From a virus (Duplodnaviria > Caudoviricetes): DNA of 60,452 nucleotides. The DNA lies in IMG/VR virus record IMGVR_UViG_3300042516_000861, positions 1 through 60,452 of that record; one strand, given 5' to 3'. This document shows, in pieces, positions 25,561 through 41,383 of the stretch. Both the position numbers and the translations under genes were made by a program. The stretch's first letter is position 1. The number at the start of each line of letters is the position of its first letter. The notes under the pieces are model-generated. The model was not told the origin of the DNA and made no database searches. It saw only the letters and a program-made list of their open reading frames with translations.

Positions 25561-26538
25561 TTAAGCAACGATTGTGTTCCAGAAGTAACCGAGGTCTGCT
25601 CCGATTACCTTGTTATCAAATGCCATTTCCGCTTCAATGCGGTCTGACTTGATTGACTCCATGCGGAACTGTGAAGTTCCAACAGTCTGTCCGAGACCAC
25701 CTGAAACACCTGTCCAAGCGAATGTGTAACCCGCTGATGGTGTAAGAAGTCCTGGATTTGGAGCAACATGTGTAAGGAGTGCGCCCTTGCCAAAAGCAAA
25801 GCCGTAAGCCTCAGATGCGCCTTCGTTGTTAGTAGCCTTAACAGCCTTTGCAACCATAACGCGTGGAATGTCGAACATTGCCGCGAGCATATCGGTTGTG
25901 ATTGTCTGTGAAGATGTGTACTTGATACGGTCTACAAGGTCTGGGTGATTCTTAAGAGCCTTGAATACATCGTATCCGAGAACGAGTGTGTTTGCTTCCA
26001 TTCCTGTGTTTCCAAGAATTTCTGCCTTTCCTGCTTCAAGGTCAGCAATTGGGTCTGATGATGCGTAATCTGACCAATGCTTTGTCTCACCTGATGATGG
26101 AGAGCCAGCAACACCTGTTACATCGTCAGCCCATACGCCTGTTGTGAAGAAGTCAGAAACGAACTGAAGTTCACGGCGAAGCATTAGACGGCGTGTAACG
26201 AACTCTGTTGCCTCACGGAGAGGGTTCAAAGGTGAGTCTGCGTTAGCAAGTGTCTGGTCATCTACATCTTTGTGGAACGCCCAGACATCTGCTGAGTATG
26301 TTCCAGTTGAGAGGTTGTAACCGCCACCAGCAGATTCAGTTCCAGGTGCGCGGCGCTGAGCCTCGTCACGGAACCAATCGTTCTTGGTGTAAGTGAAATA
26401 CTTGTCTGACTTCTTATCAACAGGGATTACTGGGAATACCTTGTCGGCAATGAAGTTGTCTTGGTTCTGAAGATAAGCAACCGAGATGTTTGTGAGAATT
26501 GCGTCAATGTGAACGCTATTGATATGTGGCTGTGGCAT
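25561..26538 (-). CDS. Major capsid protein
   Basis: HIDAILTNISVAY..FIADKVFPVIPV start typical of this capsid class; 325 aa; follows scaffold and cement genes. Confidence 0.9.
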   Translation of the reverse strand: MPQPHINSVHIDAILTNISVAYLQNQDNFIADKVFPVIPVDKKSDKYFTYTKNDWFRDEAQRRAPGTESAGGGYNLSTGTYSADVWAFHKDVDDQTLANADSPLNPLREATEFVTRRLMLRRELQFVSDFFTTGVWADDVTGVAGSPSSGETKHWSDYASSDPIADLEAGKAEILGNTGMEANTLVLGYDVFKALKNHPDLVDRIKYTSSQTITTDMLAAMFDIPRVMVAKAVKATNNEGASEAYGFAFGKGALLTHVAPNPGLLTPSAGYTFAWTGVSGGLGQTVGTSQFRMESIKSDRIEAEMAFDNKVIGADLGYFWNTIVA

Positions 26539-26951: not shown

Positions 26952-27731
26952 TTATGCACCCTTTTCATTACGGTATTGGACATAAAGTTCAGGATTGGAA
27001 GATGCGGCACTAGCGAACGCTTGTTCGAAAGATTTTGCATTTCCTTCCTCAACTGCCGACTTTGCCAAAGCAGTTAGTCTGCTGTAAGCATCGCCTGTAG
27101 TGAAGTCTGCTGATTTCCCGATTTCAGCAAAAATGTTTGCTGATTCAGCCTGAGCATTTACAGATGTGAGAATTTCCTCTACTGACTTTGCTAGGTCTGC
27201 ATCAACTGTGGACAAGCGGCGTAGCGCTGGTCCGACCTTCTCTGCATCAAGATTCAAGTTTGAGAATCCCTTTGCTTTTTCAATTGCTTCAGCATCAGCC
27301 TTAGCCTCGCGCTCCTTACGGAGTTCTTCGGTTGCTGTCTCTGCTTGCTTTTTGAAATCTTCAATCATTTTGACGACTGACTCAGGAGCGGACTTCATGT
27401 ATTCCATTTCATCCTCGGTCTTATCTGATTCTGACTTATCTTCCTCTTTAGACATTTCCATTTCTGAAAGTTTGCCTTCGAGTTCAGCGATTTTCTTCAT
27501 CGCATCTTCAAGTGTCATTTCAGCCTTTTCGACCTGTGCATCAGTAGCCGCGGTTGTTGTTTCCTCCATGATGGAGTCCTCCTCGGTGAGCGTTTCGTCT
27601 AAGACTCTCTGAACTTCAGATTCATCGGCTGATTTCATAACCAACCAACCCTCATGTAAGTGTGCAGGATGGTCTACTCCAGATGTTTCCTCAATGACTA
27701 AATTTGCCATTTTGCGGGTTCGAGCCAACAT
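26952..27731 (-). CDS. Capsid scaffolding protein
   Basis: Acidic coiled coil, ETSGVDHPA N-terminus, NPELY C-terminus, many hydrophobic-x-K-S/A sites. Confidence 0.75.
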   Translation of the reverse strand: MLARTRKMANLVIEETSGVDHPAHLHEGWLVMKSADESEVQRVLDETLTEEDSIMEETTTAATDAQVEKAEMTLEDAMKKIAELEGKLSEMEMSKEEDKSESDKTEDEMEYMKSAPESVVKMIEDFKKQAETATEELRKEREAKADAEAIEKAKGFSNLNLDAEKVGPALRRLSTVDADLAKSVEEILTSVNAQAESANIFAEIGKSADFTTGDAYSRLTALAKSAVEEGNAKSFEQAFASAASSNPELYVQYRNEKGA

Positions 27732-27831: not shown

Positions 27832-28098
27832 TTAAGAAGAAATCAAAATCCTTAAATTGACCATGGCGGCGATTAAATCTTCATAGGCGACCATTGAAAA
27901 GGGTTGTTCGTTCTGCCAGAATCGGGCAACTCTGAAATGGTAATCGCCCTCGGTCATCTTGCTCCAGACAAAAAAAGCCTGAGAATCGTGGGGTAATTGA
28001 ACTGCTAATCCAGCGAATCCTGGAGTGGTTGCAACCGTGGCAACCTCAAAGCCCATTGACTTAATGATGCTTAAAGTGTCGTCAATAACGGTGGTCAT
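27832..28098 (-). CDS. Hypothetical protein
   Basis: ATG overlaps the TGA of the frameshifted ORF (ATGA). Confidence 0.6.
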   Translation of the reverse strand: MTTVIDDTLSIIKSMGFEVATVATTPGFAGLAVQLPHDSQAFFVWSKMTEGDYHFRVARFWQNEQPFSMVAYEDLIAAMVNLRILISS

Positions 28099-28340
28099 TT
28101 GCGCTTTGGAGGTCTTAGGATGTCCATGTCATCCATCCACTTTGGGTCATCGGCATCCAATTCTTCGTATTCTTCTTCTGAGTCATCATTGTGGGAATGA
28201 AGTTTCTTTGGACTCTTTGGGTTCTTTGGCTCGGAGGAATCTTCACCTTCGGAGTCATCAGGGCTGTACTTTCCGTTCGCCCACGCACCATGGGAGCCTT
28301 GGTCGTGGCTACCGTGCTTAGATACTCCTACTTTTTTTTT
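28095..28340 (-). CDS. -1 frame extension of 28328-28732 carrying tag copy 10 and an acidic peptide
   Basis: Not in the ORF track. KKKVGVSKHGSHDQGSHGAWANGKYSPDD...RPPKRK*; no own start codon; begins at an A9G run. Confidence 0.7.
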   Translation of the reverse strand, partial: KKKVGVSKHGSHDQGSHGAWANGKYSPDDSEGEDSSEPKNPKSPKKLHSHNDDSEEEYEELDADDPKWMDDMDILRPPKRK

Positions 28341-28732
28341 AGTGTTGAGACTTTGTGACCAACCTTTGTTTCAGTTGGCTTTCCATCTCGGTACAACTGA
28401 ATCAGAGCGGCTGGGTCATCTTCGCTTCCCTCAATAGAAAAACTTGAATCAGGAACATTGATTTTGCCATCGCGCACGATACGCACAATCTTGCCTGTAG
28501 CCGTACCGCCTGATGAATTCCAAGAAACCATGTCGCCTCTGGATACAGAGACAGCCTTTTTCATTTCGTAAGCCATGTCGCGCATAGCCTTTTCAATCAT
28601 AGACTTTGCGTAACCCTTGAGACCAGCGATTCCCTTTTCATCAACTTCTTTTTCAATCATCGCGTATTCATCGTCCTTCATGCTTTTCATGGGACCATTG
28701 CGAAGTTCCTTGAGAATCTTTTTGTCTTTCAT
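28328..28732 (-). CDS. Head-region protein with C-terminal Hva1/DUF2945-like Tudor domain
   Basis: GDMVSWNSSGG...GSEDDPA...HKVSTL pattern. Confidence 0.6.
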   Translation of the reverse strand: MKDKKILKELRNGPMKSMKDDEYAMIEKEVDEKGIAGLKGYAKSMIEKAMRDMAYEMKKAVSVSRGDMVSWNSSGGTATGKIVRIVRDGKINVPDSSFSIEGSEDDPAALIQLYRDGKPTETKVGHKVSTLKKK

Positions 28733-29430
28733 GTGGTTTCCTTCGGCTTCTTTTTCTTTGGGTTCATAATTGTATCAACATGGACACTATTGACTCCTGG
28801 ACCATCTTCCTTCTCAACTTCTTCCATATCAACATAAAGGCGCTCTGCCTTACCGCCGATTGAATAGCCAAGAATCTTTCCAGACTTTACCAAGTCCCAT
28901 GCCCAAGGCTCCCAGATAACACCGAGAAATACTGTGTTTGGTGGGTATGTATGGTTTACATCAATCCCGCTTATTGTTTTAATTGGAACTGTTAATTCGT
29001 ATGGGAACGCCATAACTTCTACCCATTCTCCAGCAACCACATCGCGGTCATGCTGTAGACGGATACGGCGGTCATTAGTCTTTACATAATCCCAGACTGC
29101 TCGTTGCAACTCATCGGCATCTGTCCATTCACCATGGGCATCAATACGGTCTGGAATATACATAGCCCCTAGCGTGTAACGCTTAGCATCTTCAGCCTTT
29201 GAAACTTCATAGGCTCCAATGCTCTTAGGCGCTGCGAAAGCATCTGGGAATGAACTCATTGCAAGGGCTTCAGTAATCTCCTCATAGTCACCTTCGCCCA
29301 TAACTAGATAGGCTGAAATAAGGCGAGTCGGTGTCCATCCCTGTGTTGGGTACCAGCGCTCCTCATCAATGATGTTGAAGCGATAGAGGTTATGGGGTAA
29401 ACCTCTGCTCATCTTTACGAAATATCTCAT
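28729..29430 (-). CDS. XkdF-like prohead serine protease with an extra N-terminal domain of about 65 aa
   Basis: YIPDRIDAHGEW, LQHD, VKSGKILGYSIGG motifs of the XkdF/Peptidase_S78_2 type. Confidence 0.8.
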   Translation of the reverse strand: MRYFVKMSRGLPHNLYRFNIIDEERWYPTQGWTPTRLISAYLVMGEGDYEEITEALAMSSFPDAFAAPKSIGAYEVSKAEDAKRYTLGAMYIPDRIDAHGEWTDADELQRAVWDYVKTNDRRIRLQHDRDVVAGEWVEVMAFPYELTVPIKTISGIDVNHTYPPNTVFLGVIWEPWAWDLVKSGKILGYSIGGKAERLYVDMEEVEKEDGPGVNSVHVDTIMNPKKKKPKETT

Positions 29431-32144
29431 TTGACCACTTCTCTCTTAAAGGTAAGTTTATCAACCAGGGTTGATTTAATCAAGCCAGCCTCTTGAGCCG
29501 TCTGGAACTGCTGAAGAACAAGTGTTCCCGTAGCGATAATTGCTCCGTAGTTTGCTGGACGAACAACGCCTTTGGCAATGTCAATCATCTGATTCCACAT
29601 ACTTTCTCGGGTCGAATCATTCAACTCAACCTGATATTTCTTGTAGATAGGGTGCGTTCCGCCTTCGCCTTCTTTATGAGCAAATGAACTCGGCGTGTGT
29701 AATTGAATCTCTACCTCAATGCCGTCTTTCCTTGCTTTGATATTAACTCCATCGTAAGGGTCGCCAGATTGCCAGAAATTCTTAACTCGTAATGTGAAGC
29801 CAGATGCCTCAAGAGCCTTTATTGTTGAATCAAGGGATTGAGCGTAATTCTCATCGCCAACTTTGAGCGTATAGCGAACTGCATCCGAGACAGCATCAGC
29901 CGCTCTTGACCTATCGCCATCAAATTCTGTAACTGCATCGCCATCAATTTTGCGAGCCAAAGAATCTGTTGATTTTACTCTTTGTTCCAATTGGACAAAT
30001 TCTCCGCCAGCATTTTCCTGGATGACTTTCATCAACTCTGTAACTTTTGGTTCAACCGCAAGCGCTCTTTCTCGGATACGCTTTGCTTCGGCAACTGCCT
30101 CTGCTGACCATTGTGGTCTAGCCATAACATCTGGGGCTAATGGTGGGACATCACCAGTCACATTCATAGCCCATGAGCCGTGTTTCTTTTGGTCATGCTC
30201 ACCATGCTTTGCGACATCTGACCAAGCCTTGCCGTCTCCAGAAAGAACATCAGAGTGTTGAAGGTTTTGCTCAGGAAACATATCTCTGTGGAACTGAAGC
30301 ATTGCTGAAGCCAAGCCTCGGCGTTGATGTGCAGGTTTCACAATCGCTTCATAGATTGTTGCAAAATTATCGTTTTTTGCGGATGTTCGCGCAACACTTC
30401 CAGCACCAGGCGGAAGAACCTCTATTTTTCCTACTATCAATTTGGCTATTTTCTGTCCCCATCCATCAATGGTTGTCCCATCGGTAGGTTTTTTAAGGGC
30501 AAAAATTTCACTCCCTTTTCCACCTTGGAGAAAAAGCACATAATCTGTTGGTTGTTTTCCTTCAGGCTGATAACGAACTACTCGCGTATTCTCATTGAAG
30601 AATTCATTAACGCCATCGTTCTTGCCAATGATGGTTAATTTCGGTGAACCTGAAGCAGCCCAAGAACCGTGTGTGGATTGGTCGTGTTCCTCATGTTTTG
30701 TAAGAGGTTTCCACGCAAAAGATTTCTTTGCGGGTGCATCAATAGCCTGTGCTTCAAATCCGTTGGCTGTAGACCATTCAAGAGAAATATCTAGCGCTTC
30801 TTGTGCTGTTACTGATAAACGATAAACAGGTAATTTAGTGCCAGGATTATCAAAGGCAAAAGCAACTGAAGCGCCCCATGTATGGTGACCGTCAATTACG
30901 AAACCATCGCTGGAAATAAGGATTCTTTCTTTTTCTGGAATTCCACCATCCTCACGGAATTTATTGTAAATCGCTCCAGAACGAGCAGCAGAAATTTCTT
31001 TCTGAACTGGTTTTAATGTGGTTGGGTCAATTTCTTCAGCCGTTGATGTAATGCCGTCAGACTTTTCAATTTCAGCAAGGAAGCGACCTCGTTCTTTTCC
31101 AGGAATCTGCGGCATATCTTTGCGAGCAATTCCCATACCTTCATCGCCATATAACAATGTTCCTTCAACACTTAATTCAGTAAGGTCTGGGTGGTCATCT
31201 CGTTTCGCCGCCGACATGAGAAAGGCTGAGACATTTTCTTTCTCAACTGTTGGGTGACCGCCATCCAAAATTGCTTGAGCAATATCGTCAGCCCATGAGC
31301 CGTGAGTCTTTTGGTCGTGCTGTCCCTGATTATGTTTTGCGACTTCTTTTTCAGCCCGAGCAATCATGGTTTTAGCCCAAGTAAATCCTGCATCGCCGCC
31401 CCAGGCATCCCAGGCAACTCGACCCGCTGAAGGGAATCCCTTTTCGCCTTGGCTAAAACCGATAGCCTCTTTGTCTACTTCGTGGCGAGCCAAAAATGAT
31501 TTCATTCGCTTCAGGGTTGCAAGCGAAACACCTTCTCCAGATGCCAACTGACCAGCGCGAGAGCGACCAATACCAGTAAAGCCGTCTCCAGCCTTGCCCT
31601 CAGAAATCCAATCAAGCGCTCTGCGGGCTGCGGTGCGGACAGCCATCGGAGGTATGTAACTATCTGACTTCTTAAATTCGTGCATCTGCGCTAAGCGCTT
31701 ATCAGCCTCAGCCTTTGTGTTATATGTGCCGAACTTTCTTTTGCCTTCCTCGTCATAAACTGTGTACTTGCCATCCTCACGGCGAATCATTTTGTTTAAT
31801 TCTTCAAATGGCTCTAAGCGCATTTCATAACCAGTAGTGGTCAAAAATAACTGGACATCGGCAATCGCTGAACCTGTAGATTTAATAACATCGGCAATCA
31901 TGTCGGCTGGGAGTGAGCCAGCAAGGGCTTTGAGATTGGCGTTTTTCATTGTGTCTACGAGGATTTCGAACTCATCCCAGACATCGTTCTCAGGCGCTTC
32001 TAGCCCACGGCGCAACATCTCATTGACGGCAAGGTGATGGACTTCTAATACTTCTGGGGTTGCCTCTGACTTATGTAGGCGTTCATGCAAGGCGCGTAGT
32101 TTATCTGCGCTTAACTGGATTAGTTTTGGTGCAATATCAGCCAT
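29427..32144 (-). CDS. Multidomain polyprotein: head-associated modules, tag-ParB/Srx-like, tag-GNAT, tag-RelA/SpoT-like synthetase
   Basis: Three tags; ILISSDGFVIDGHHTW (ParB); HQRRGLASAML (GNAT motif A); RVKSTDSLARK, DAVRY, YDGVN, EIQLHT (RelA/SpoT Syn motifs). Confidence 0.8.
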   Translation of the reverse strand: MADIAPKLIQLSADKLRALHERLHKSEATPEVLEVHHLAVNEMLRRGLEAPENDVWDEFEILVDTMKNANLKALAGSLPADMIADVIKSTGSAIADVQLFLTTTGYEMRLEPFEELNKMIRREDGKYTVYDEEGKRKFGTYNTKAEADKRLAQMHEFKKSDSYIPPMAVRTAARRALDWISEGKAGDGFTGIGRSRAGQLASGEGVSLATLKRMKSFLARHEVDKEAIGFSQGEKGFPSAGRVAWDAWGGDAGFTWAKTMIARAEKEVAKHNQGQHDQKTHGSWADDIAQAILDGGHPTVEKENVSAFLMSAAKRDDHPDLTELSVEGTLLYGDEGMGIARKDMPQIPGKERGRFLAEIEKSDGITSTAEEIDPTTLKPVQKEISAARSGAIYNKFREDGGIPEKERILISSDGFVIDGHHTWGASVAFAFDNPGTKLPVYRLSVTAQEALDISLEWSTANGFEAQAIDAPAKKSFAWKPLTKHEEHDQSTHGSWAASGSPKLTIIGKNDGVNEFFNENTRVVRYQPEGKQPTDYVLFLQGGKGSEIFALKKPTDGTTIDGWGQKIAKLIVGKIEVLPPGAGSVARTSAKNDNFATIYEAIVKPAHQRRGLASAMLQFHRDMFPEQNLQHSDVLSGDGKAWSDVAKHGEHDQKKHGSWAMNVTGDVPPLAPDVMARPQWSAEAVAEAKRIRERALAVEPKVTELMKVIQENAGGEFVQLEQRVKSTDSLARKIDGDAVTEFDGDRSRAADAVSDAVRYTLKVGDENYAQSLDSTIKALEASGFTLRVKNFWQSGDPYDGVNIKARKDGIEVEIQLHTPSSFAHKEGEGGTHPIYKKYQVELNDSTRESMWNQMIDIAKGVVRPANYGAIIATGTLVLQQFQTAQEAGLIKSTLVDKLTFKREVVK

Positions 32145-32175
32145 GGCTACATAGTAGCGGATTGAATTACAACCG

Positions 32176-32322
32176 TTATTTAGTTTCCTCTACCTGGATT
32201 AGATTCATCTCTATCATCTTATCCAGAATAGCAATTTCTCTTTCATCTGGAGGACCAGAAATATCTGAGGGCATAGAGGCATTAACCTTGGCTATCGCCT
32301 TGAGTCTTTCTTGTCTTTTCAT
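32176..32322 (-). CDS. 48-aa ORF, candidate immunity protein for the upstream GNAT
   Basis: Not in the ORF track. MKRQERLKAIAKVNASMPSDISGPPDEREIAILDKMIEMNLIQVEETK*; starts 1 nt after the upstream stop. Confidence 0.6.
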   Translation of the reverse strand: MKRQERLKAIAKVNASMPSDISGPPDEREIAILDKMIEMNLIQVEETK

Positions 32323-32323
32323 A

Positions 32324-34240
32324 CTATGATTTTACCGCACTTGCTGGCTTTTCTCTAGCGGTGCCGTCATAGACCAAGCCATCGCCATCTCTATCAACTG
32401 GACCTTCAAAGAGATTTCTGCCTTCAGGGGTAAGAATCTTCACATAATTAAGATTGAGGCTATCGAAAAGCCTCTCGCCAGCCCAAGTTACCGCCTTCTT
32501 TGTATCGCCAGTAACAGGGTGTTCGTAATCTGATGTAGTTCTGTCTTTGTAACCAATCATCACGAAATCGCTAGGCAAAGGAAAGTCATCGTTCTTTAGG
32601 TCTTTTATAGAATCCCAACGCGCTCCGTTTTCATCAGATACATAACCATTAGTAGCCCTACGCATAAGGGAATCAAATTCTTCTCTGGCTGGCTGACCAA
32701 AATCAAGTTCATCAGCACTATTCATATTAGTGATTCTGTTTACAACTATATGTTTAAAATCAGAGTCAATTTCTTCTGGTTGCCAGTCAAAACCGTCACG
32801 CGCCCACACGCGAGCGCCGTCCCAGCCAGTTCCAACTGTAATAGCGCCAAAACCTCTCTGGGTATACCAATCTTCGGAGCGGTCAATAAATTCTTTACCG
32901 AACCCTAAACCTTTATAGTCATCGTCAAGTTTTAATAACTTATGTTCTACTATCCAGACCCCATCTTCTTTATAGAATACTCGCTCGAACTCACCAGCAT
33001 AGTTTCCATTGGAATCTTCAATGTTGCCTTTTACGCTAATGCCCGCATCACCTGTAGGTGTATCGCTAGTCAAGTCCACATATTGAATCTCGGAACTCAG
33101 CGTAGTAACAGCATCGCCAACAGCATTTACTACGGTGTGGTCTGTATTGAAGATTTCTTCGAAATATGGAGTTACATTGGTGAGCATTTGCTCGGTACTT
33201 TCACCTCCGTTTTGGTCCATCCATAGCCCTGCAAGTTCTCCAGGCTCGCTGTATTCAATAAGTTCATCAATCATTTCCGCTTGGACATCTTCATAAATAG
33301 TAGATTTTTCTTGCTCTGTGTACTCATGGTTTGGGAATTCTTCTTGGAGTCTTTCCAGTCGCGCACTCACTCGACCATCAATTCCCTCGGTGGCTTGTGA
33401 ATATAAACCAGGGTCGTTCTCGACAAGCATTTTTAAGTCATCATAACCTGGTCCTTCTCCGCTGCCTTCCAGGATTGCATCTAAATCTTCTAGCGCTGGT
33501 CCTAGAGTGGACATTGCCTCCATGCGACCAATTTCTTCATCGGTGTATCCAGTAGCCCAAGAACCATGTGTTTTTTGGTCATGCTCGCCGTGTTTCAAGA
33601 CAGGGATTAACCCAGCCTCAAAACGAATTACTTTGTAGGCTTTGCCAACTTCTCCCAGATTTTTTGGGCGTAGGCTTCGATTTCCGAATCGCTCATATCC
33701 GCGATGTTGGCTGGCAGTTCTACCGCTTCCAGTTTTTTCGACATTACCTGTTCCTCCTGTTTCGATTTCAGCGAAGTTAGTTACATCCCAAATAGAAATT
33801 TGGTCTTGCTTTTGCCCTGCTGAGATTGCTCTCTCTCTATCTTGGATGTTTTCCGATACATCAAGATAAACCTGTCCATCGTCCTTATTATGCCATAACC
33901 CCAGGTAGTTTTTACCACCGCCGAGTTCTGCCTTATGTTTCTTCATGTAATCAGCAAGAATCTTTGGACCCTTGATTGGGTCATAGAAATCATCGGCAGA
34001 TACGACAGAGCCGTATTTAGCGCCCTTAGCGACCATGTACCCGCTAGTAGGTTCTGAGCCATCCACCATGTTTACGGAAAGACCGCCGTTCTCACGAACT
34101 CGGCTTAGGATTGAATCGGCAACTCCAGCGCCCATGCCACCAGTAGCCCAGTTTCCGTGGGTCTTTTGGTCGTGGGTGCCGTGTTTCTCCATAACAAGGG
34201 TTAGCCCCTTGCTTGAGTCATAACCAAAATTTTCAATCAT
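32324..34240 (-). CDS. Polyprotein: leader, tag-unknown domain, tag-acidic region plus GNAT, C-terminal DGDG motif
   Basis: Two tags; YKGLGFGKEF...GARVWARDGFDW GNAT; DRDGDGLVYDGT. Confidence 0.75.
   Translation of the reverse strand: MIENFGYDSSKGLTLVMEKHGTHDQKTHGNWATGGMGAGVADSILSRVRENGGLSVNMVDGSEPTSGYMVAKGAKYGSVVSADDFYDPIKGPKILADYMKKHKAELGGGKNYLGLWHNKDDGQVYLDVSENIQDRERAISAGQKQDQISIWDVTNFAEIETGGTGNVEKTGSGRTASQHRGYERFGNRSLRPKNLGEVGKAYKVIRFEAGLIPVLKHGEHDQKTHGSWATGYTDEEIGRMEAMSTLGPALEDLDAILEGSGEGPGYDDLKMLVENDPGLYSQATEGIDGRVSARLERLQEEFPNHEYTEQEKSTIYEDVQAEMIDELIEYSEPGELAGLWMDQNGGESTEQMLTNVTPYFEEIFNTDHTVVNAVGDAVTTLSSEIQYVDLTSDTPTGDAGISVKGNIEDSNGNYAGEFERVFYKEDGVWIVEHKLLKLDDDYKGLGFGKEFIDRSEDWYTQRGFGAITVGTGWDGARVWARDGFDWQPEEIDSDFKHIVVNRITNMNSADELDFGQPAREEFDSLMRRATNGYVSDENGARWDSIKDLKNDDFPLPSDFVMIGYKDRTTSDYEHPVTGDTKKAVTWAGERLFDSLNLNYVKILTPEGRNLFEGPVDRDGDGLVYDGTAREKPASAVKS
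33628..33744 (-). CDS. 38-aa gene nested out of frame inside the 32324-34240 polyprotein
   Basis: AGGAGG RBS 8 nt before ATG; MSKKLEAVELPANIADMSDSEIEAYAQKIWEKLAKPTK*. Confidence 0.65.
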   Translation of the reverse strand: MSKKLEAVELPANIADMSDSEIEAYAQKIWEKLAKPTK

Positions 34241-35012
34241 TTACTAACTCCACATCCCAGACTTTACCTTCATTATTGAGGATTTTGAACTTACTATCCC
34301 GAGGTAGAAGGAACTCTGCCTCTCTTGAGAATTGAGATTCTATGCCTGTAACGCTCGCGGGGAAAACCCCTTGCGTACCAGCGGGTAACTTCATGCGGAG
34401 AACGATGCCCTGATACATTCCACTTTCAGCGTTTGCGAACTTTGCACCCATCGCAGGGTCAAGGCTAGTAGAAGAAAATCCTTTGTCGGAATAAACATCC
34501 CCAACTTTTAACGCCTCGAAAAAATCTAATCCATTGCCTTTTACTCCACGGTACACAGTTATAGGGCTATCCAGAGGTGGGGCATACTCGATTGCTCCAT
34601 CTAAAAGAGCGATTGTGGTCGCAACACCATCTGTGCTAATAACTGGGTCACGGAGCGCTTCGTTTATTGTGTATCCGAGCATACTTTGGTAGGTATCAAC
34701 AGCGCGTGTGAACATACTGCCAACTACCCTGTGTCTAAGAATTGTGTCCATAAAAGATAATTCTCTGTCTGTATCAGAACCTAATTTAGCAATTTCAGAG
34801 TCACGCCATGCAACCAAGTCTGTAACAACCTCGCTACCAGTAGCCCAGTTTCCATGAGTCTTTTGGTCATGTTCGCCGTGCTTAGCAACTGGATTAACAA
34901 TCCATTTAAGGACTGCTCCGTTGGTTTGAGCCATGTAACTATTGAACTGGGCTTGAGTAAGGCTTTTGCGCTTGCCAGTAACAGGGCTATCAATAACAAT
35001 TTCACTTATCAT
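34233..35012 (-). CDS. Tagged VIP2-like (R-S-E) ADP-ribosyltransferase
   Basis: VYRG, GFSSTS, EAEFLLPRDSKF motifs after the tag. Confidence 0.85.
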   Translation of the reverse strand: MISEIVIDSPVTGKRKSLTQAQFNSYMAQTNGAVLKWIVNPVAKHGEHDQKTHGNWATGSEVVTDLVAWRDSEIAKLGSDTDRELSFMDTILRHRVVGSMFTRAVDTYQSMLGYTINEALRDPVISTDGVATTIALLDGAIEYAPPLDSPITVYRGVKGNGLDFFEALKVGDVYSDKGFSSTSLDPAMGAKFANAESGMYQGIVLRMKLPAGTQGVFPASVTGIESQFSREAEFLLPRDSKFKILNNEGKVWDVELVND

Positions 35013-35925
35013 CCCTAGTCACCTCAATCCCTGCTTTCTCAAGAAGTGCAATCGTATCCTCACCAACAATAGAAAATCTCTGTAATCGTACAGATTTAAT
35101 ATCACTCAACCTCACCCCTCCATGAATCTGCGCTTCAAAATAGTCAATATCTCTAATTGTTCTTACAGACCTAATTGGTCGTGATACTGTAGTCATATTT
35201 CTTTGAAAGTGACGGCTTCGGTAGGCTGAATCTACTTGCTCAAGACTTAAATTACCTTTTCGAGCATCTGTTACTAAAACTGGTGTTAAGCCGTGATTAG
35301 CCGAATCTCCAGGAGAAATCGTTGTTCTACCAGCAACCTTATCTTTCAAGATTATTTTTACATCACCGTATGAAAGTGTTTCATTTTCGACTGATGGTTG
35401 AAGTGGGGTGTCGAAATATCCGTAAATTGGACTATTTGCATTTGTAGGCTGACCCCATAAACCTTTTTCCAAGTCGTAGCGACCCTCGTTGTATTCAATT
35501 TCAAATCCTAGTGTTGGTTCAGGCAATTCTGTAAGACTCTTAAAACCACCATGCTCAACTATTTTTCTTAGTTCTAAATCTCCTGACGAAACTCTTATAG
35601 CGATAGGAGCCTCGGCTACTTGTTGCAACTGACTTCTACCCAAGTTTAATTCTTCGGAACTTAACTCTCTAGCCGTTAGTCTTTCTTGTTCTTTGAACTC
35701 AGGCTTCCACTCATAAGGCATAGCATCAAGACCAGACTCGCTAGAGCCTTCAGCCCAATTACCGTGGGTAGATTGGTCATGTTCTTGGTGCTTTTCCATC
35801 TTGTCAAAGAAATCTTCGACTCTGCCGCCTTCTAAAAGATGGGCATAGTAAGCGTTAAAATCTTCTTTGTTGAGGTTATTGGCTAGGTAAGCGTATCGCC
35901 TTGATTGTGCAGGAGTAGTCATCAT
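35002..35925 (-). CDS. Tagged DUF3626-like (ART-fold) protein
   Basis: PIYGY, YGDVKIILK, RTTISPGDS, YFEAQIHGG motifs. Confidence 0.7.
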   Translation of the reverse strand: MMTTPAQSRRYAYLANNLNKEDFNAYYAHLLEGGRVEDFFDKMEKHQEHDQSTHGNWAEGSSESGLDAMPYEWKPEFKEQERLTARELSSEELNLGRSQLQQVAEAPIAIRVSSGDLELRKIVEHGGFKSLTELPEPTLGFEIEYNEGRYDLEKGLWGQPTNANSPIYGYFDTPLQPSVENETLSYGDVKIILKDKVAGRTTISPGDSANHGLTPVLVTDARKGNLSLEQVDSAYRSRHFQRNMTTVSRPIRSVRTIRDIDYFEAQIHGGVRLSDIKSVRLQRFSIVGEDTIALLEKAGIEVTRDDK

Positions 35926-37424
35926 TCACCAACCGCCTTTTCTGCAACTGTAAGCATTGACCTATCTAAAACTACATAAATGCCGCGCTTGTCATCTTGG
36001 ACATGACCAGCATCGTAATACTGATAGCCCATAGCGGCAAGCCTTCTACCGACATTATTACGGTGAGACTTTTCCCCGCCCCAGACCATTTCCTTCATAA
36101 CTGTTTTTACAACTTCGGCTGTTGGCGCTTTGGCTGTATCAGGAATCATCATTGCCATCACTTTTCCGTTACCCAATTTATTGTTATCGGGGTCTACATC
36201 GTCAGCATAACTTTGAGCAGAATCAAGAAATGATGTTGTGTATGTTCCATTACCAAAGGCTCCCCAGCCTCCAAAATACTCGCCCTCTCTAAAATCGGTG
36301 AGGGCTTGCTCTGCCGTATAGGTCACTTCGCTATCTCCAGTAGATGAATAATCAGCGATGCCTCGAAAAACTATAAATCCACCTCCCTGCTCGGCTGATA
36401 ACTTTGCTAAATTCTCTAAATCCTCAAGTGTTTCTACAGTTTTTGGTTTCTCAGTAAAGCCTTGGCGCTCGGCAATAATCTTGAGCGCATTATCACCGTA
36501 TGCTTTGCCAGCGGTGGTTTCTGCAAAATCCATATTCTCGATTAAATCTAAAGTCTCAACATTATTACCAGCGGCTCTAACGGCTGCTTCGATGGCTATT
36601 CCAGGGGTATTTTGAGTCAGCGAACTATTGATGATGTTTAATTTTTCTTTGAAAAAGACCTCATCGAGCGCTTCAGTAATATCAACTCCAGCGCCACCGC
36701 CGCCTGCCCATGAGCCGTGTGTGCGTTGGTCATGTAATCCTTGGAGGTGCTTTTGGACTGCCGTTCCAATATCTGTCTTATTAACCGTTAATTTATCGGC
36801 ATTGAATAAAACAACCTCAGCCCTACCTGTTTTGTAAATTGAATAACCGTCATAACCTTTTGCCGCCCAGTAGATATTGGCAATGTCAGAATCAGAGAAA
36901 TTGTCCATCTTTCCAGAAGTAATTCTTTCTATAATCTTCGGCATATCTAAAGATGTTTCTTTATCAAAAAGACTATACGCTTTACTCCAAGCAATTTCGC
37001 CTTCAACCAACTTAACGCTTTTATCTAATTTCAAGCCTATAAGGTCTCCATACGCAGCCGCATATTCTGGTTCAGATGAGATATAAATTCCTTGACCCCA
37101 AGTTTGAAATGGAGTGAAACGAATTTCTCCATTTAATAAACTTTGAGCCTGTATATTTACATCTGTAACCCCACGGAAAAAGTTAATTTCTTCTTCTGAC
37201 AAATCTTCAAGTTTAGGCTTCATGCTCTTGCCTAAGCGCTCGGCAACCTTTTTATACATCTCATTAACTGTGGTAGAGCCAGAGATAATATCTTTGATTT
37301 CATCATCGGATAATTCGCTGGATGAGCCTTGGGAACCTTCAGCCCAATTACCATGAGATGACTGGTCATGTTCCTGATGTTTGAAAACTGGGATAAGCCC
37401 AGGCGCGAACTTGATTACCTTCAT
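35922..37424 (-). CDS. Polyprotein with two tagged ADP-ribosyltransferase-like domains
   Basis: Likely start MKVIKF at 37424 (ATGA overlap with the MuF stop); FFRG..GQGIY..AAAY..GYDG..EVVLF and VFRG..FGNGTY..AQSY..GYQ..YVVLDR. Confidence 0.7.
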   Translation of the reverse strand: MKVIKFAPGLIPVFKHQEHDQSSHGNWAEGSQGSSSELSDDEIKDIISGSTTVNEMYKKVAERLGKSMKPKLEDLSEEEINFFRGVTDVNIQAQSLLNGEIRFTPFQTWGQGIYISSEPEYAAAYGDLIGLKLDKSVKLVEGEIAWSKAYSLFDKETSLDMPKIIERITSGKMDNFSDSDIANIYWAAKGYDGYSIYKTGRAEVVLFNADKLTVNKTDIGTAVQKHLQGLHDQRTHGSWAGGGGAGVDITEALDEVFFKEKLNIINSSLTQNTPGIAIEAAVRAAGNNVETLDLIENMDFAETTAGKAYGDNALKIIAERQGFTEKPKTVETLEDLENLAKLSAEQGGGFIVFRGIADYSSTGDSEVTYTAEQALTDFREGEYFGGWGAFGNGTYTTSFLDSAQSYADDVDPDNNKLGNGKVMAMMIPDTAKAPTAEVVKTVMKEMVWGGEKSHRNNVGRRLAAMGYQYYDAGHVQDDKRGIYVVLDRSMLTVAEKAVGE

Positions 37425-38431
37425 CGGGTTCCTCGGTCTGGAGGGATGATAACGAAGGTACAGCGGCAATTAGGGTGGACTATGGGCTTCTCCAGCCCGA
37501 TAGAGAACAGACCAATCCAAGGGACGACTTCTCCATTCAAAGGCGCACAAATGTCGCAGGTGCGCTCGTCTGGGGCTGTAATCCACATCTTCATAGTTGC
37601 AGGGTCTATGTATCCCGCTTCATCGGCTTGGCGATAGCCTTCCATTCGCCCTTCATTCTGGGCTATCTGAATCTCTGTGCGAGCAATCATGCGAGCGCGA
37701 GCGCCCTTGAGCCTGTCTGCGTAGGCTGTTGCAGATTTCTGAGCGCGTTGGATTGCTGTAGCCTCTTTGATACCAGCCGCGATGAGACGGTCTAGTTCTC
37801 GAATCTCGAACTTTCGAACGGCATCTGCCCACTTAGGGTGGAGACCAATAATGTTTTTAATTCGAACTGCCGTGCGGCGCACATCAATCTGCTCATTGAA
37901 TGAATCAATAATTATCTTACGGATTGCCTGACGGGTAAGGTCGTCAATACTTGTCACCAACTGCCCAGCCCTGCGAGCAGCAAAGGCTAGTGAATTAGGG
38001 TTTGTTTTATTAAAAGAAAGACTGAAGGCAACTGGTTCTGGATTAACTCTTGCCCAATTCGGAATCTTCGTAAAGTCCATATTTGCCATGGATTCAGGAT
38101 TTGCAATTCGAACTTGGGTAGGCGTAAATGCTGGCAGCGCCAAAACTGGAGCAATCTTTTTCAATCCTTGGATTGCTTCAACTCCACCGATGTCAATGAT
38201 GCCGAGCAACTCGGCTTCAATCTTAGGAGCATCACCATTGACAGAGATTGCTCTAAGCAAGCGGTCTAAGGTATCTGCATCTAAGCGACCAAGAATCTTT
38301 GCCAACTCATCCACTTTGATTTTGTCGGTTGCATTACGAATCGCATTAACGAGAACGCGAGCCATCGCCGCTTCTTCGGCGGTTAGAGGATTTCTGGAGC
38401 CATCTGAGCCAGAGCCAAAACTAATTGCCAT
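37421..38431 (-). CDS. MuF / SPP1 gp7-like head morphogenesis protein
   Basis: RARMIARTE, W..APDERTCDICAPLNG, HPNCRC. Confidence 0.9.
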   Translation of the reverse strand: MAISFGSGSDGSRNPLTAEEAAMARVLVNAIRNATDKIKVDELAKILGRLDADTLDRLLRAISVNGDAPKIEAELLGIIDIGGVEAIQGLKKIAPVLALPAFTPTQVRIANPESMANMDFTKIPNWARVNPEPVAFSLSFNKTNPNSLAFAARRAGQLVTSIDDLTRQAIRKIIIDSFNEQIDVRRTAVRIKNIIGLHPKWADAVRKFEIRELDRLIAAGIKEATAIQRAQKSATAYADRLKGARARMIARTEIQIAQNEGRMEGYRQADEAGYIDPATMKMWITAPDERTCDICAPLNGEVVPWIGLFSIGLEKPIVHPNCRCTFVIIPPDRGTR

Positions 38432-38434
38432 GCT

Positions 38435-39862
38435 CTACTCCAAATCGCCGTCTAGCGGTTCCTGTCCTTCTGGAATTTCAAGTTCTTCTTCCAGAGATGG
38501 CGGTGCATCAAATCCTTGAGCAGCAGCCCCTTCAGCGCCAGGCATTGCTGGAGCGCCGTAGGCTTCTTGTCCGTCATGTTCGGCAGGTGGTAATCCAGCC
38601 AAATCGCGTAAGTAATCTTCCAACTTAGGGTCTGGCATAAGAACGCCAGCGGTAGCCAACTTGGAAATGTAATCTGCAACCTCGGTCAAATCAATATGGC
38701 TTACTTCTCCGTATGTGAGGAATGGGGCGCGTGAGACATCCATTCCGTTTAGTTTCATAAGGCGAGGAATTGCATATTGATTAAATACTTCAGCAATGTT
38801 CTTGGCGATTGCATCAACTGACATTGACCATAAATCCATCTTTGATGAACCTAGGGCGTATGAACCTACGCGGTCTGAGCCTAGAAGAATAAAGTCTGAA
38901 AGGATTGACATAGACATGCGCTGGTCGTAGCGCTGAACAATTTTGTCTGTATCAAATTGGCGTGAGCCGCCTGATGATAGGAGAACTAAGTCGAACTGCT
39001 TATGTCCTGCATCATCATAAAGTGTTGGAAATACAACACCCTCTTGCTCATTGCGCTTGATAGATGTAACGATGTTTTGAACTGTCGAAAGAACATTTGC
39101 TTGCTCGGCTGTAGCCGCACTTGATAAATACTCAGGCGGTACATAGGCAACTGGCAATCCTGCTAGGTCGCGTTCAATACCGACTGCTTCGATTTCTTCG
39201 ATACGGCGCTTGAAGAACCAAGGGCGGTATGCGTTACGAAGGATTGAGCGACCCTCTGGGTTATTTTTAGCCGTAGTTGTACGGAATAGCAGAGCCTTCT
39301 CGATAGGGATGATGTGAGTGCCGCCCGATGATGGGTCGGTCTGCTCCATCGCTTGAATTCCACCGCGCTCGTCAATCTGCCAACGGAATAAAGTTTCTTG
39401 GGAACGGATAGGCAATTTACGCCATCCGATTTTATTATCTGTGTGCTTAGAACGCTTAGATGGGTCTTTTGCCTCTGGACCTGTACGGACTTTGTAAACA
39501 ATTTCGTTGTAGGAATATCCGTAAACGAGCATTGAGAGAATTTGAGAAAGTGTCTGGTCCCATGAATCCGACATATCGTGTAAGCAAGAATCTATGAACG
39601 CTGCTACTTCTTCATCTTCAGGCTTTACTTCACCATCTACTGAATTATCGGAATATGGGTCTACGCGCCATTCAAGGCGTGTAATAACTTTCTCAATCGC
39701 ATAAAGCATTGAGCCGATTGTTGGGTCATTGTCAGCCATCTCACGATAAACGCGAGCGCCACGAAGTCCACGAAGATTAACAAGGAATTCTTCATAAACC
39801 GTTCCACCAGAACGGCGTAAACCCGTAGAGCCGAGTTCTTGTAAATCTGGCTTTTCTGCCAT
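38435..39862 (-). CDS. Portal protein (Mu gp29/DUF935-like)
   Basis: YGYSYNEIVY, NPEGRSILR, GSYALG motifs; upstream of MuF. Confidence 0.88.
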   Translation of the reverse strand: MAEKPDLQELGSTGLRRSGGTVYEEFLVNLRGLRGARVYREMADNDPTIGSMLYAIEKVITRLEWRVDPYSDNSVDGEVKPEDEEVAAFIDSCLHDMSDSWDQTLSQILSMLVYGYSYNEIVYKVRTGPEAKDPSKRSKHTDNKIGWRKLPIRSQETLFRWQIDERGGIQAMEQTDPSSGGTHIIPIEKALLFRTTTAKNNPEGRSILRNAYRPWFFKRRIEEIEAVGIERDLAGLPVAYVPPEYLSSAATAEQANVLSTVQNIVTSIKRNEQEGVVFPTLYDDAGHKQFDLVLLSSGGSRQFDTDKIVQRYDQRMSMSILSDFILLGSDRVGSYALGSSKMDLWSMSVDAIAKNIAEVFNQYAIPRLMKLNGMDVSRAPFLTYGEVSHIDLTEVADYISKLATAGVLMPDPKLEDYLRDLAGLPPAEHDGQEAYGAPAMPGAEGAAAQGFDAPPSLEEELEIPEGQEPLDGDLE

Positions 39863-40414: not shown

Positions 40415-40846
40415 TTAAAAAGGCGCAACATCCGCTCCGAATGGAGCGCTCCAAGGGTCAGGCGTGGATGGATTAAATGAGGCATCTGTGCGCTGGACAA
40501 CGCTCGCGCTCGTTACATGGCGCTTGAGGTCAATGCCTACATTCCATGCGGTGACGGCAATCTTTGAGCGCTTAGCCCCCGTTGCCTTGTCATCCCAATT
40601 CTCTTGAACTGCGGTTCCGACCACAATCACGGACATTCCCTTTTGAACTGAATCGGCTACATTCTCTGCGGTCTTACCCCAACACTTAATATCCCAAAAT
40701 GTTGTATCGGTATTTTCCCATGAGCCATCGGCTTGCTTAACTGATTTTGATGATACGACTGTGAAGGTTGCGATTGCTTTTCCATTAGGGATTACACGCA
40801 ACTCTGGGTCTGCTACTACATTTCCCGTGATAGTTAATTGAGTCAT
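40415..40846 (-). CDS. ssb: Single-stranded DNA-binding protein
   Basis: ITGNVVADPELR, WGKTAENV, C-terminal DVAPF; start MTQLTI at 40846. Confidence 0.9.
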   Translation of the reverse strand: MTQLTITGNVVADPELRVIPNGKAIATFTVVSSKSVKQADGSWENTDTTFWDIKCWGKTAENVADSVQKGMSVIVVGTAVQENWDDKATGAKRSKIAVTAWNVGIDLKRHVTSASVVQRTDASFNPSTPDPWSAPFGADVAPF

Positions 40847-41139
40847 TTGATTTTTCCTTCGGTTATAGGTATCGGGATGATATTTAGTTTTGTTCTTATG
40901 CCTTGTCTTTCTCTGGTAGAGGTCCCTCCCCAGATTCCAACTACTGAATAATGTAATGCGTAGGTCAGACATTCTCGCTTCCATCGGCATCCATTACACA
41001 TCGCTTTTACTTTTTTATTCTCCTCTGTGACTTTGTTCTGGTCTGGAAAATAAAACTCCGTATCAATCTGTGAGCAAATCGCTCCTTCGAACTGCCAAGG
41101 TTTCAACACTAATAAATACTTCTTTCTCCTCATTGACAA
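40843..41139 (-). CDS. whiB: WhiB-family transcription factor
   Basis: Four Cys (C..D...F, CxxC, C) and GIWGG..RER; true start probably about 41109. Confidence 0.9.
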   Translation of the reverse strand: MSMRRKKYLLVLKPWQFEGAICSQIDTEFYFPDQNKVTEENKKVKAMCNGCRWKRECLTYALHYSVVGIWGGTSTRERQGIRTKLNIIPIPITEGKIK

Positions 41140-41383
41140 TCAACGGATGCGGGGAATTAGGAGATAACCTAGCCAATAAGTTGCCATTGCGCCATACCTT
41201 GCCACCAGCAATTCCATCGTAACTATTAGTGTCAGGCTTTACTAGAGATTCACAGTCATTCCAGAATTTACAGTTTCGGCAATACTGCAATCCTGGCTGC
41301 GCTAAATCTAATTGGTATTGGTCAAAGAGCCACGGGTCTGAATTGCGACACGGGGCATTATCCAAAAACTCTAATAAACTCAT
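41063..41383 (-). CDS. whiB: Second, divergent WhiB-like protein
   Basis: APCRNSDPWLF, CRNC....DC, GIAGG. Confidence 0.75.
   Translation of the reverse strand: MSLLEFLDNAPCRNSDPWLFDQYQLDLAQPGLQYCRNCKFWNDCESLVKPDTNSYDGIAGGKVWRNGNLLARLSPNSPHPLIVNEEKEVFISVETLAVRRSDLLTD

Follow-up and report, generated by a model that had tools for sequence, protein, structure and literature searches.

The window analysed here, the whole 60,452-base stretch of an IMG/VR virus record estimated to be 99% complete, carries in its head operon an array of genes in which one histidine-rich peptide, K-H-x(2-4)-H-D-Q-x-x-H-G-[NSA]-W-A (hereafter the tag), stands at the boundaries between unrelated modules. The array belongs firmly among the virion-associated polyvalent or MuF-toxin-like effectors. 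For the tag itself, we consider the chances about even that it serves capsid-packaged polyvalent effectors as a processing and address motif, recognized by the prohead protease. Injected phage proteins are a main route of counter-defence and host takeover, and the entry of unrelated enzymes into the capsid is known for few model phages.

A six-frame search of the whole window with KH.{2,4}HDQ..HG[NSA]WA gave ten matches, all on the minus strand between positions 28278 and 37382 (9.1 kb of the 60.4 kb; individual positions are given in the table below), and the looser HDQ..H gave no further match in the six frames of the 60,452 bases. The back-translated pattern CAYGAYCARNNNNNNCAYGGNNNNTGG likewise had ten matches, against a mean of 0.00 and a maximum of 0 in 100 dinucleotide-preserving shuffles. 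The first-pass annotation, made from the sequence by eye, had placed ten tags at these positions and nowhere else in the window, and had described a conserved peptide with variable codons; both descriptions held. Among the eight tags with a two-residue spacer, mean pairwise identity was 0.71 for the nucleotides (42 nucleotides, nt) and 0.78 for the amino acids (aa). In these eight, lysine is encoded by AAA and AAG four times each, the histidines by a mixture of CAT and CAC, and glycine by GGT (five), GGA (two) and GGC (one). As the codons vary while the peptide is conserved, selection acts on the peptide.

The tags are spread over six genes, with two in gene A, one each in B and C, two in D, three in E and one in the sixth, F. 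Nine of them lie in ordinary open reading frames (ORFs), as first described; the tenth is found in the -1 frame after the stop codon of the Tudor-domain gene F and has no start codon of its own, whereas the earlier annotation had given its tail as an ordinary tagged peptide. Each tag precedes a distinct cargo, in agreement with the same annotation: the downstream modules of at least 70 aa fall into nine families (7, 9, 12, 0, 1, 2, 6, 11 and 3), to which an acidic tail of 60 aa is added behind the last tag. Families were defined by clustering at 70% mutual coverage, which replaced single linkage at 50% coverage after the latter had chained five of the window modules.

In a logo of 366 unique tags the motif reads V(-6)-x-K-H-G-[ED]-H-D-Q-[SK]-[ST]-H-G-[NS]-W-A-x-G and is followed by G/S/D/E-rich sequence. 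In an alignment of 130 rows the residues K, H, H, D, Q, H, G and W do not vary, partly as a result of how the rows were chosen, and a pre-tag pattern [FLIVY]-x-x-G-[LYF]-x-P is present at 115 of 437 tags (for example VIKFAPGLIPVF-KH). The separate genes start with leaders of 12-45 aa, which belong to a few families and end exactly at K-H; the first ATG and H-D-Q are a median of 25 residues apart (n=237), and the median module length from tag to tag is 193.5 aa (n=156). In AlphaFold2 (AF2) models the predicted local distance difference test (pLDDT) was below 50 at both tag regions of gene D (residues 1-35 and 166-230) and at the second tag of gene A (residues 1-36), each adjoining confident domains. 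Such low confidence is expected of disordered linkers, and within them the tag has the character of a linear motif. Self-cleavage chemistry, either Asn-dependent or of the Ni-dependent S-x-H type, was considered and dropped because the relevant positions vary (position 7 is N in 51%, S in 37% and A in 11%).

The motif is widespread. A pattern scan of IMG/VR yielded at least 119 loci, and all counts of loci given below refer to the matches listed there; they hold at least 427 exact H-D-Q-x-x-H-G-x-W cores, 1 to 10 per locus, with a maximum of eight tags per ORF. A profile of 130 tag windows recovered 582 proteins, all metagenomic or unnamed, among 8,000 candidates scored from a set of 5.8 billion, and an exhaustive search of 1.84 billion proteins with the same profile returned 934 cluster representatives at E<=0.001 (314 at E<=1e-10 and 41 at E<=1e-30). 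The top match is a protein of 7059 aa in which 20 tag stretches lie 143-436 residues apart. A Pfam scan of the 130 tag peptides gave no recurring family, with at most two of the 130 on any one, and megablast of the region against the phage collection gave no match; tblastn with a 32-aa tag peptide also gave none at E<=1, for which the query is too short, so that this result is no evidence of absence. No paper was found with typical tag strings or with the combination of HDQ, MuF and phage, and the supplementary alignments of Iyer et al. 2017 and Jamet et al. 2017 could still show the motif. A portable boundary motif present in these 934 protein clusters would be a sequence handle for virion-borne effectors in metagenomes and would give a testable rule for polyvalent protein processing. 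It is also a candidate for loading foreign proteins into phage capsids.

Wherever the surrounding genome could be followed, the tag was confined to head-morphogenesis clusters and preceded variable modules, properties close to those (confinement to portal-MuF-protease loci, variable enzyme domains) by which the first reading of the window had proposed to judge it. In the eight genomes that are at least 90% complete, all 53 tags lie on one strand in one head-gene cluster (a reversed control pattern gave 0), and the loci listed contain 97 module families among 500 modules. The tag pattern matched three times among 185,579 prokaryote species genomes, each time on a contig of an Actinomycetota metagenome-assembled genome (MAG), and all three matches are phage head loci, laid out as TerL-portal-(GNAT-MuF)-(XkdF end-tag-X), as MuF-tagged ORF-XkdF and as a four-tag ORF. 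All eight near-complete genomes encode an S78-clan protease, of the PF14550 (XkdF) type in six and of the PF04586 (S78) type in two.

At least one head gene is common to the window and 102 of the 119 loci, nine loci belong to a second head lineage, and in eight the stored stretch holds none of these head genes. The second lineage has no BLAST similarity to the head genes of the window and a gene order of its own: TerL, a PF04860 portal, an HK97-type S78 protease (PF04586) with tag-module-tag-module-tag in the same ORF, a PF05065 capsid protein, an adaptor, a Dps-like gene and tagged genes for GNATs and ADP-ribosyltransferases (ARTs). Searches with its protease-tag protein matched only the protease domain, in Salinibacter phages. 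A Dps/ferritin-like gene (PF00210, 1.2e-10) was seen between the head-tail adaptor and the tagged cargo at L111:8051-8593 and in lineage-2 loci. Cargo families 0 and 7 are common to both lineages, and the tag is portable, as had been supposed: two head-gene systems without detectable sequence similarity have the motif and some of their cargo families in common. Its flavour differs by head lineage, P-V-x-KH-G-[ED]-HDQ-[SK]-[ST] in lineage 1 and [KR]-[SA]-x-KH-[GA]-D-HDQ-S-[DE] in lineage 2, with divergence at positions -7, -6, -1, +3 and +4. A lineage-specific flavour combined with shared cargo families points to a phage-encoded partner.

In lineage-1 arrays a conserved distal core, D1-D2-E0-(E1)-E3 (families 1-2-4-(6)-3), lies ahead of the protease, and the MuF-proximal part is hypervariable, with up to four copies of ART family 0 and with families 5, 7, 9, 10-13, 15 and 16 in many orders. 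Such strongly combinatorial arrays upstream of a conserved core, and the passage of the same cargo families between head lineages, would also be expected if the tag were a demarcation motif with a role after assembly, in cassette exchange, in metal-dependent association, or in release, refolding or host-factor binding after injection. Conserved junctions of this kind are VENN in CdiA and DPxGL in Rhs toxins, and the three His and the Asp of the tag could bind metal. We nevertheless regard a role of this sort as quite unlikely. The synonymous differences between the tags of the window, reflected in the 0.71 nucleotide identity over 42 nt, make them poor recombination substrates, and the lineage-specific flavour is contrary to a universal host partner. 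In the 7059-aa protein (P0244) 16 of the 20 tag stretches read KHG[TSI]GDQSPHGNWA, with Gly for the middle His, which is contrary to an obligatory three-His metal site and weakens the metal binding that the first-pass annotation had thought possible.

Among the ORFs of the listed loci, tags are present in 2 of 72 MuF ORFs (L056 and L118), 2 of 47 protease ORFs (L027 and L064) and 13 of 44 Tudor-gene ORFs, and in none of 60 portal, 37 scaffold, 23 capsid, 37 88-aa and 29 131-aa ORFs. The tag directly follows MuF in L056 and L118, which are true MuF-tag-cargo fusions; the earlier description of a bare MuF with separate cargo is thus correct for the window and does not extend to these relatives. 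In L027 and L064, E0 (the untagged first module of gene E), a tag, a further module and XkdF form one ORF of 634 aa. In L111 the tag lies within ~15 residues after the S78 domain, and in L130 the XkdF domain ends at residue 89 and the tag is at residue 96.

In the scheme that we consider most likely, head-internal carriers (MuF, the E0 domain and the protease) would bring the pre-proteins into the procapsid, either as fusion partners or as companions. The S78-family prohead protease would recognize and cut the tag, removing the short N-terminal leaders and separating the modules, and the freed enzymes, each about 150-400 aa long and including ADP-ribosyltransferases, GNATs and an alarmone synthetase, would be ejected with the DNA. 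The tag may be docking and cleavage site at once. The presence of one tag per junction in chains of 8-20 tags, and of tags beside MuF and protease, fits a processing site at least as well as a loading signal. Eight to 20 copies per chain would be superfluous for targeting and are expected for polyprotein processing, which favours the latter, as do the tags flanking protease and MuF, the co-occurrence with S78-clan proteases in unrelated head modules and the lineage-specific flavour. Leaders that end at K-H are also laid out like the propeptides found on internal proteins of T4 and of giant phages.

A pure capsid-loading or ejection signal, the reading put forward in the first-pass annotation, appears unlikely. 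Such a signal would bind a component of the procapsid interior, in the manner of encapsulin cargo-loading peptides or of the T4 capsid-targeting sequence, and remain uncut, with polyproteins carrying redundant copies. It would agree with the single-module genes B and C, where leader and tag are N-terminal as in a targeting peptide, with a motif that is long and strongly conserved like a binding epitope, with the flanking G/S/D/E-rich linker and its predicted disorder, and with the lineage-specific flavour. It is at odds with a tag core that is identical despite very different shells (a lambda-E-like capsid with a separate scaffold versus PF05065 with an N-terminal extension), with up to 20 copies in one chain, and with the retention of tags at junctions with MuF and protease, which are themselves head-internal.

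Several points weigh against recognition and cleavage of the tag by the prohead protease. The usual substrates of such proteases, scaffold, capsid and portal proteins, are those in which no tag was found. The 14 conserved residues far exceed the needs of known prohead-protease sites such as LxE in T4 and S/A/G-x-E in phiKZ. The products of separate single-module genes would still have to enter the capsid by some means that a pure cleavage site does not provide; this need keeps a loading signal alive, possibly combined with cleavage. S78-clan proteases are common in tailed phages, and their co-occurrence with the tag in eight of eight genomes is therefore weak evidence. The closest cultured relatives, Arthrobacter phages Kovu and Ottawa, with capsid proteins 55-59% identical to that of the window, share its head genes and scaffold N-terminus in loci without a tag, so the head module works without it. 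No cultured tag-bearing phage was found. Co-folding of the XkdF protease with the tag scored 0.00 in two runs without controls, and speaks neither for nor against binding.

The array shares its main features with the polyvalent proteins, which in the consulted sections of Iyer et al. 2017 (PMC5512222) have at least two effector domains per polypeptide, are encoded beside virion packaging genes and include ART, ParB-like and RelA/SpoT domains as well as MuF fusions; packaging, injection and proteolytic release by embedded zincin-like metallopeptidases were proposed for them. Genes A, D and E encode two, two and four modules, respectively, and relatives reach 8-20. The array is phage-encoded between MuF (PF04233) and XkdF (PF14550), with the portal upstream and scaffold and capsid genes downstream, and its domains are typical of the class: an ART (PF03496), an alarmone synthetase (8vx3), a GNAT fold and matches to PolyVal-ART in BFVD. 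The same sections of PMC5512222 mention no conserved inter-domain peptide, whereas here the same 14-residue motif is found at every junction. The array differs further in being split over six coupled genes, and the only protease seen is the prohead protease of the S78 type; family-model scans of the window revealed no zincin peptidase.

A related class are the MuF polymorphic toxins, known, according to the consulted sections of Jamet et al. 2017 (PMC5576092), almost only from temperate Firmicutes phages, for which loading into the head and delivery with the DNA were hypothesised. They too combine toxin domains, frequently ART and RelA-like, with a MuF domain encoded beside portal and terminase. 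Theirs is one C-terminal toxin on MuF and no junction motif is described in those sections, whereas the window has ten modules in separate genes. The window MuF carries no C-terminal toxin, and such a fusion was found only in L056 and L118.

Phage proteins with short N-terminal leaders, which enter the head, are processed there by the prohead protease and leave by ejection, are known from T4 (internal proteins and Alt) and from phiKZ and SPN3US, and their cargo includes an ADP-ribosyltransferase, which makes them a possible analogue of the tagged proteins. Their signals are short, weakly conserved and N-terminal only, with cleavage motifs of three residues, whereas the tag has 14 residues, eight of them invariant, and is also internal and repeated; the protease is of the S78/XkdF type here and gp21 in T4.

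It is very unlikely, in our judgement, that the array proteins stay unpackaged, as late-expressed cytoplasmic toxins or toxins released from the cell, with the tag serving an unrelated purpose. Such a role would suit the 'Trojan horse' interpretation of VIP2-like ARTs of freshwater phages, some of them predicted to infect Actinobacteria, as anti-eukaryote toxins in the consulted part of Kavagutti et al. 2019 (PMC6802176); the ARTs of this phage lineage, whose probable hosts are lake Actinomycetota, have so far been read as anti-grazer toxins, not as injected effectors. The array, however, is flanked by MuF and the prohead protease, with translational coupling to both, and its modules are fused to MuF or protease in relatives. 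Its repertoire (ART-PolyVal-like, ParB-like, GNAT and alarmone synthetase) is also that of the polyvalent proteins and MuF toxins, as far as the consulted sections describe them (PMC5512222, PMC5576092).

The tenth tag is encoded in a different configuration. Gene F ends in CTA AAA AAA AAG TAG, in which a run of nine A (A9) and a G contain the heptamer A_AAA_AAG in the zero frame, directly followed by the stop codon. Behind the heptamer the -1 frame is open for 79 codons; the extension consists of KKKVGVS, the tag and an acidic tail with 19 D/E and 10 K/R. The tail ends in MDILRPPKRK, an end conserved in relatives, and the -1 frame stop overlaps the start of the 88-aa gene (ATGA). The same arrangement, a tag in the -1 frame behind a slippery A-run, was found in 27 of the 39 complete gene ends from the window and 38 loci, as AAA AAA AAG TAG/TAA in 19, AAA AAA AAT TAG in four and AAA AAA GCC TAA in four. 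In six others (L024, L038, L046, L057, L062 and L073) the same fusion is encoded in frame, and in the remaining six there is no tag. Flanking synonymous positions vary while the A-run stays (15 cases inspected). In three further lake-metagenome runs, each from a different study, contigs bridged the A9 run without an indel; a fourth contig, which ends 12 nt beyond the run, was left uncounted. The predicted RNA fold of the downstream 81 nt has -27.6 kcal/mol (z -1.75), with nine of 200 shuffles equally stable.

These patterns suggest that tag 10 is reached only by a conserved -1 frameshift at A_AAA_AAG, through ribosomal or transcriptional slippage on A9. The heptamer is of the dnaX type. As in dnaX-type frameshifting and in the G-GT frameshift of tail chaperones, a zero-frame slippery sequence would give two products with a common N-terminus, the long one being minor. 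This case differs from both in its site, the end of a Tudor-domain gene within the head operon, and in a zero-frame stop directly after the heptamer, and would be a new recoding case outside tail-chaperone genes. The frameshift would yield a minor long Tudor protein with one tag and an acidic tail that bears a conserved basic, hydrophobic end; the six in-frame fusions and the overlap of the -1 frame stop with the next start codon lend this product indirect support. In L027, L064, L091, L102 and L109 the helical N-terminal part of F is separated from the Tudor domain by a tag and an additional module, and the Tudor domain thus behaves as a further cassette. The C-terminus of the protease (28729-28770, HVDTIMNPKKKKPK) and the tail of long F (28098-28140, WMDDMDILRPPKRK) both have a hydrophobic acidic stretch followed by Pro and Lys/Arg; this shared ending may be a C-terminal capsid-binding peptide.

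An extended form of the processing scheme, which we find doubtful, would make the tag a self-sufficient transferable signal that is both bound and cut by the S78-type protease, such that any cargo behind it is packaged, released and injected, with the frameshifted Tudor-tag-acidic-tail protein as an adaptor setting the cargo load. Such a bind-and-cut signal would be the phage counterpart of encapsulin cargo peptides and would explain arrays of up to 20 modules. Under it, the 'Trojan horse' toxins of freshwater actinophages would become effectors that are injected and act against the host. The likeness to encapsulin cargo-loading peptides and to the C-terminal tail of the HK97 protease would lie in a short portable peptide on a flexible linker, unrelated cargo and a shell of the HK97 fold; those peptides differ from the tag in being terminal, present once per cargo, not His-rich and not cleavage sites.

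The cargo modules could be assigned to varying degrees. The earlier labels of ART for C1, RelA/SpoT-like for E3 and GNAT for D2 were supported by database matches (for gene C see the table), those of ART for A1 and A2, DUF3626 for B1 and GNAT for E2 found weak matches, and ParB-like for E1 is a label given by eye. E3 resembles alarmone synthetases (PDB 8vx3 'SaSAS', 9.8e-24; NCBIfam XopAD C-terminal region, 1.5e-24) and has 32-36% identity to head-morphogenesis proteins of pneumococcal phages, in their C-terminal part. In gene D (AF2 model, pLDDT 71), D1 is an alpha/beta domain that matches phrog_17808, and D2 consists of a helical region and a GNAT fold. The 38 rows listed for ranks 1-49 of the Foldseek search of the PDB with D2, repeat chains of an entry being omitted, had E values of 3.2e-3 to 3.0e-2, none <=1e-3, and most were GNATs with a probability near 1.00; three rows were M. 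tuberculosis isocitrate lyase 2, with probabilities of 0.47-0.72.

A1 and A2 are paralogues sharing Y-R-G and G-x-G-x-Y-x-[ST], and the Glu in x-E-V-V-L-F-N is kept by A1 and absent from A2. The model of tag 2 and A2 (AF2, pLDDT 79) had ARTs as its top PDB matches in Foldseek, weakly (E 0.06), and matched BFVD entries named PolyVal ADP-ribosyltransferase, PARP catalytic domain, 'capsid maturation protease and MuF-like fusion protein' and 'large polyvalent protein associated domain'; a weak ART-like fold is accordingly suggested by the model for A1 and A2. B1 matched PF12294 (DUF3626) at E 0.016, below the cut-off, and PDB 7dn8 at E 0.0011, and E2 matched GNAT families of Pfam at E 0.002, also below the cut-off. 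E1, which gave no match to a family model, carries the invariant motif DGHH and is 34% identical to large virion proteins of Pseudomonas phages. Profile searches of the PDB with A1, A2, D1, E0 and E1 gave no match below E 0.07. Residues 151-269 of E0 (31338-31694) are 40-50% identical to stretches encoded in the head regions of Roseobacter CRP phages, Synechococcus S-CBS1 and S-CBS3, Pseudomonas phage PaBG and Halorubrum tailed viruses, which, by sequence, makes this part of E0 a putative widespread head-associated domain. Domains found in relatives are PF18760, in the tag-bearing protein P0013, and PF10263 (SprT-like) and PF07737 elsewhere.

On the minus strand the genes follow the order portal, MuF, A, B, C, D, a 180-nt gap, E, XkdF protease, F, 88-aa gene, scaffold, 131-aa gene and capsid protein. 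The ATG of gene A at 37424 agrees with the leader MKVIKFAPGLIPVF of its relatives and is overlapped by the MuF stop codon (ATGA); the same overlap is found at A/B, C/D, E/protease and protease/F, and B and C overlap by 11 nt (ATGATAAGTGA). The stretch between D and E (32145-32323), in which there is no long ORF, is the sole gap in the overlap-coupled array.

Table 1. Head genes, tags and frameshift elements of the window
Feature	Position	Strand	Basis
Portal, upstream end of head operon	38435..39862	-	Named from position and phrog portal matches of the adjacent MuF
MuF-like head protein, 336 aa, without toxin domain or tag	37421..38431	-	PF04233 4.3e-14; phrog_3517 5e-56
Gene A, 500 aa: 14-aa leader, tag 1 (37341-37382), A1, tag 2 (36705-36752), A2	35922..37424	-	
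Gene B, 307 aa: 43-aa leader, tag 3 (35752-35793), B1	35002..35925	-	Weakly DUF3626-like
Gene C, 259 aa: 43-aa leader, tag 4 (34842-34883), C1 (ADP-ribosyltransferase)	34233..35012	-	PF03496 7e-18; phrog_3895, phrog_802 (Alt-like)
Gene D, 638 aa: 18-aa leader, tag 5 (34145-34186), D1, tag 6 (33554-33595), D2	32324..34240	-	
Gene E, 905 aa: E0 (untagged, carrier-like), tag 7 (31290-31337), E1, tag 8 (30657-30698), E2, tag 9 (30168-30209), E3	29427..32144	-	phrog_2859 8e-299
XkdF-type (Peptidase_S78_2) prohead protease, 233 aa, no tag	28729..29430	-	PF14550 6.1e-12
Gene F, 134 aa: helical N-terminal part and Hva1_TUDOR domain	28328..28732	-	PF11160 3.7e-9
Slippery site, A9 run and G	28331..28340	-	Heptamer A_AAA_AAG (28331-28337) in zero frame, then stop TAG (28328-28330)
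-1 extension of F: KKKVGVS, tag 10 (28278-28319), acidic 60-aa tail	28095..28336	-	Tag without own start codon
88-aa gene, no tag	27832..28098	-	Conserved beside F in 37 loci
Scaffold-like protein, 259 aa, no tag	26952..27731	-	phrog_13547 3.1e-84; N-terminal EETSGVDHPAHLHEGW
Major capsid protein	25561..26538	-	tblastn to Arthrobacter phages

Homologues of the portal were found at 49-97% identity in 60 related loci, and the XkdF protease has 456 relatives at E<=1e-5. Since the PF04233 match extends to residue 326 of the 336 in the window MuF, this protein has no extra domain, and the match of phrog_2859 to gene E implies that deposited relatives must exist.

The window is most likely from a freshwater actinophage. 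Its capsid protein is 55-59% identical to annotated Arthrobacter phage major capsid proteins (tblastn), and a 2-kb stretch of the window is present in at least 24 runs, with at least half of the sampled words in 12, of which 11 are lake-water metagenomes; no RNA run is among the 24. Two Cys-rich ORFs that are WhiB-like by their translations, and the Actinomycetota MAG contigs described above, point in the same direction. The WhiB-like ORFs lie with an SSB-like ORF at 40415-41383 on the minus strand, all judged by eye, and are consistent with an actinobacterial host. An 8-kb island of hypothetical proteins is described in two Planktophila phages in the consulted part of Kavagutti et al. 2023.

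The N-terminus of the scaffold (EETSGVDHPAHLHEGW, residues about 14-30) hardly varies among 36 relatives, including those in which identity over the remainder of the protein is 50-65%, and is similar to the strand that ends S78 protease domains (ELSLTPNPANPNA in L111). Its His-rich motif (VDHPAHLHEGW) was considered as a relative or partner of the tag and ruled out, as Arthrobacter phage Kovu, which has no tag, carries it just the same. Gene 20 of Kovu (L128:8957-10090, annotated as RNA ligase) encodes a domain with two HxT motifs, 2H-like by eye, that is fused straight to an XkdF protease domain and thus represents cargo on the prohead protease without a tag.

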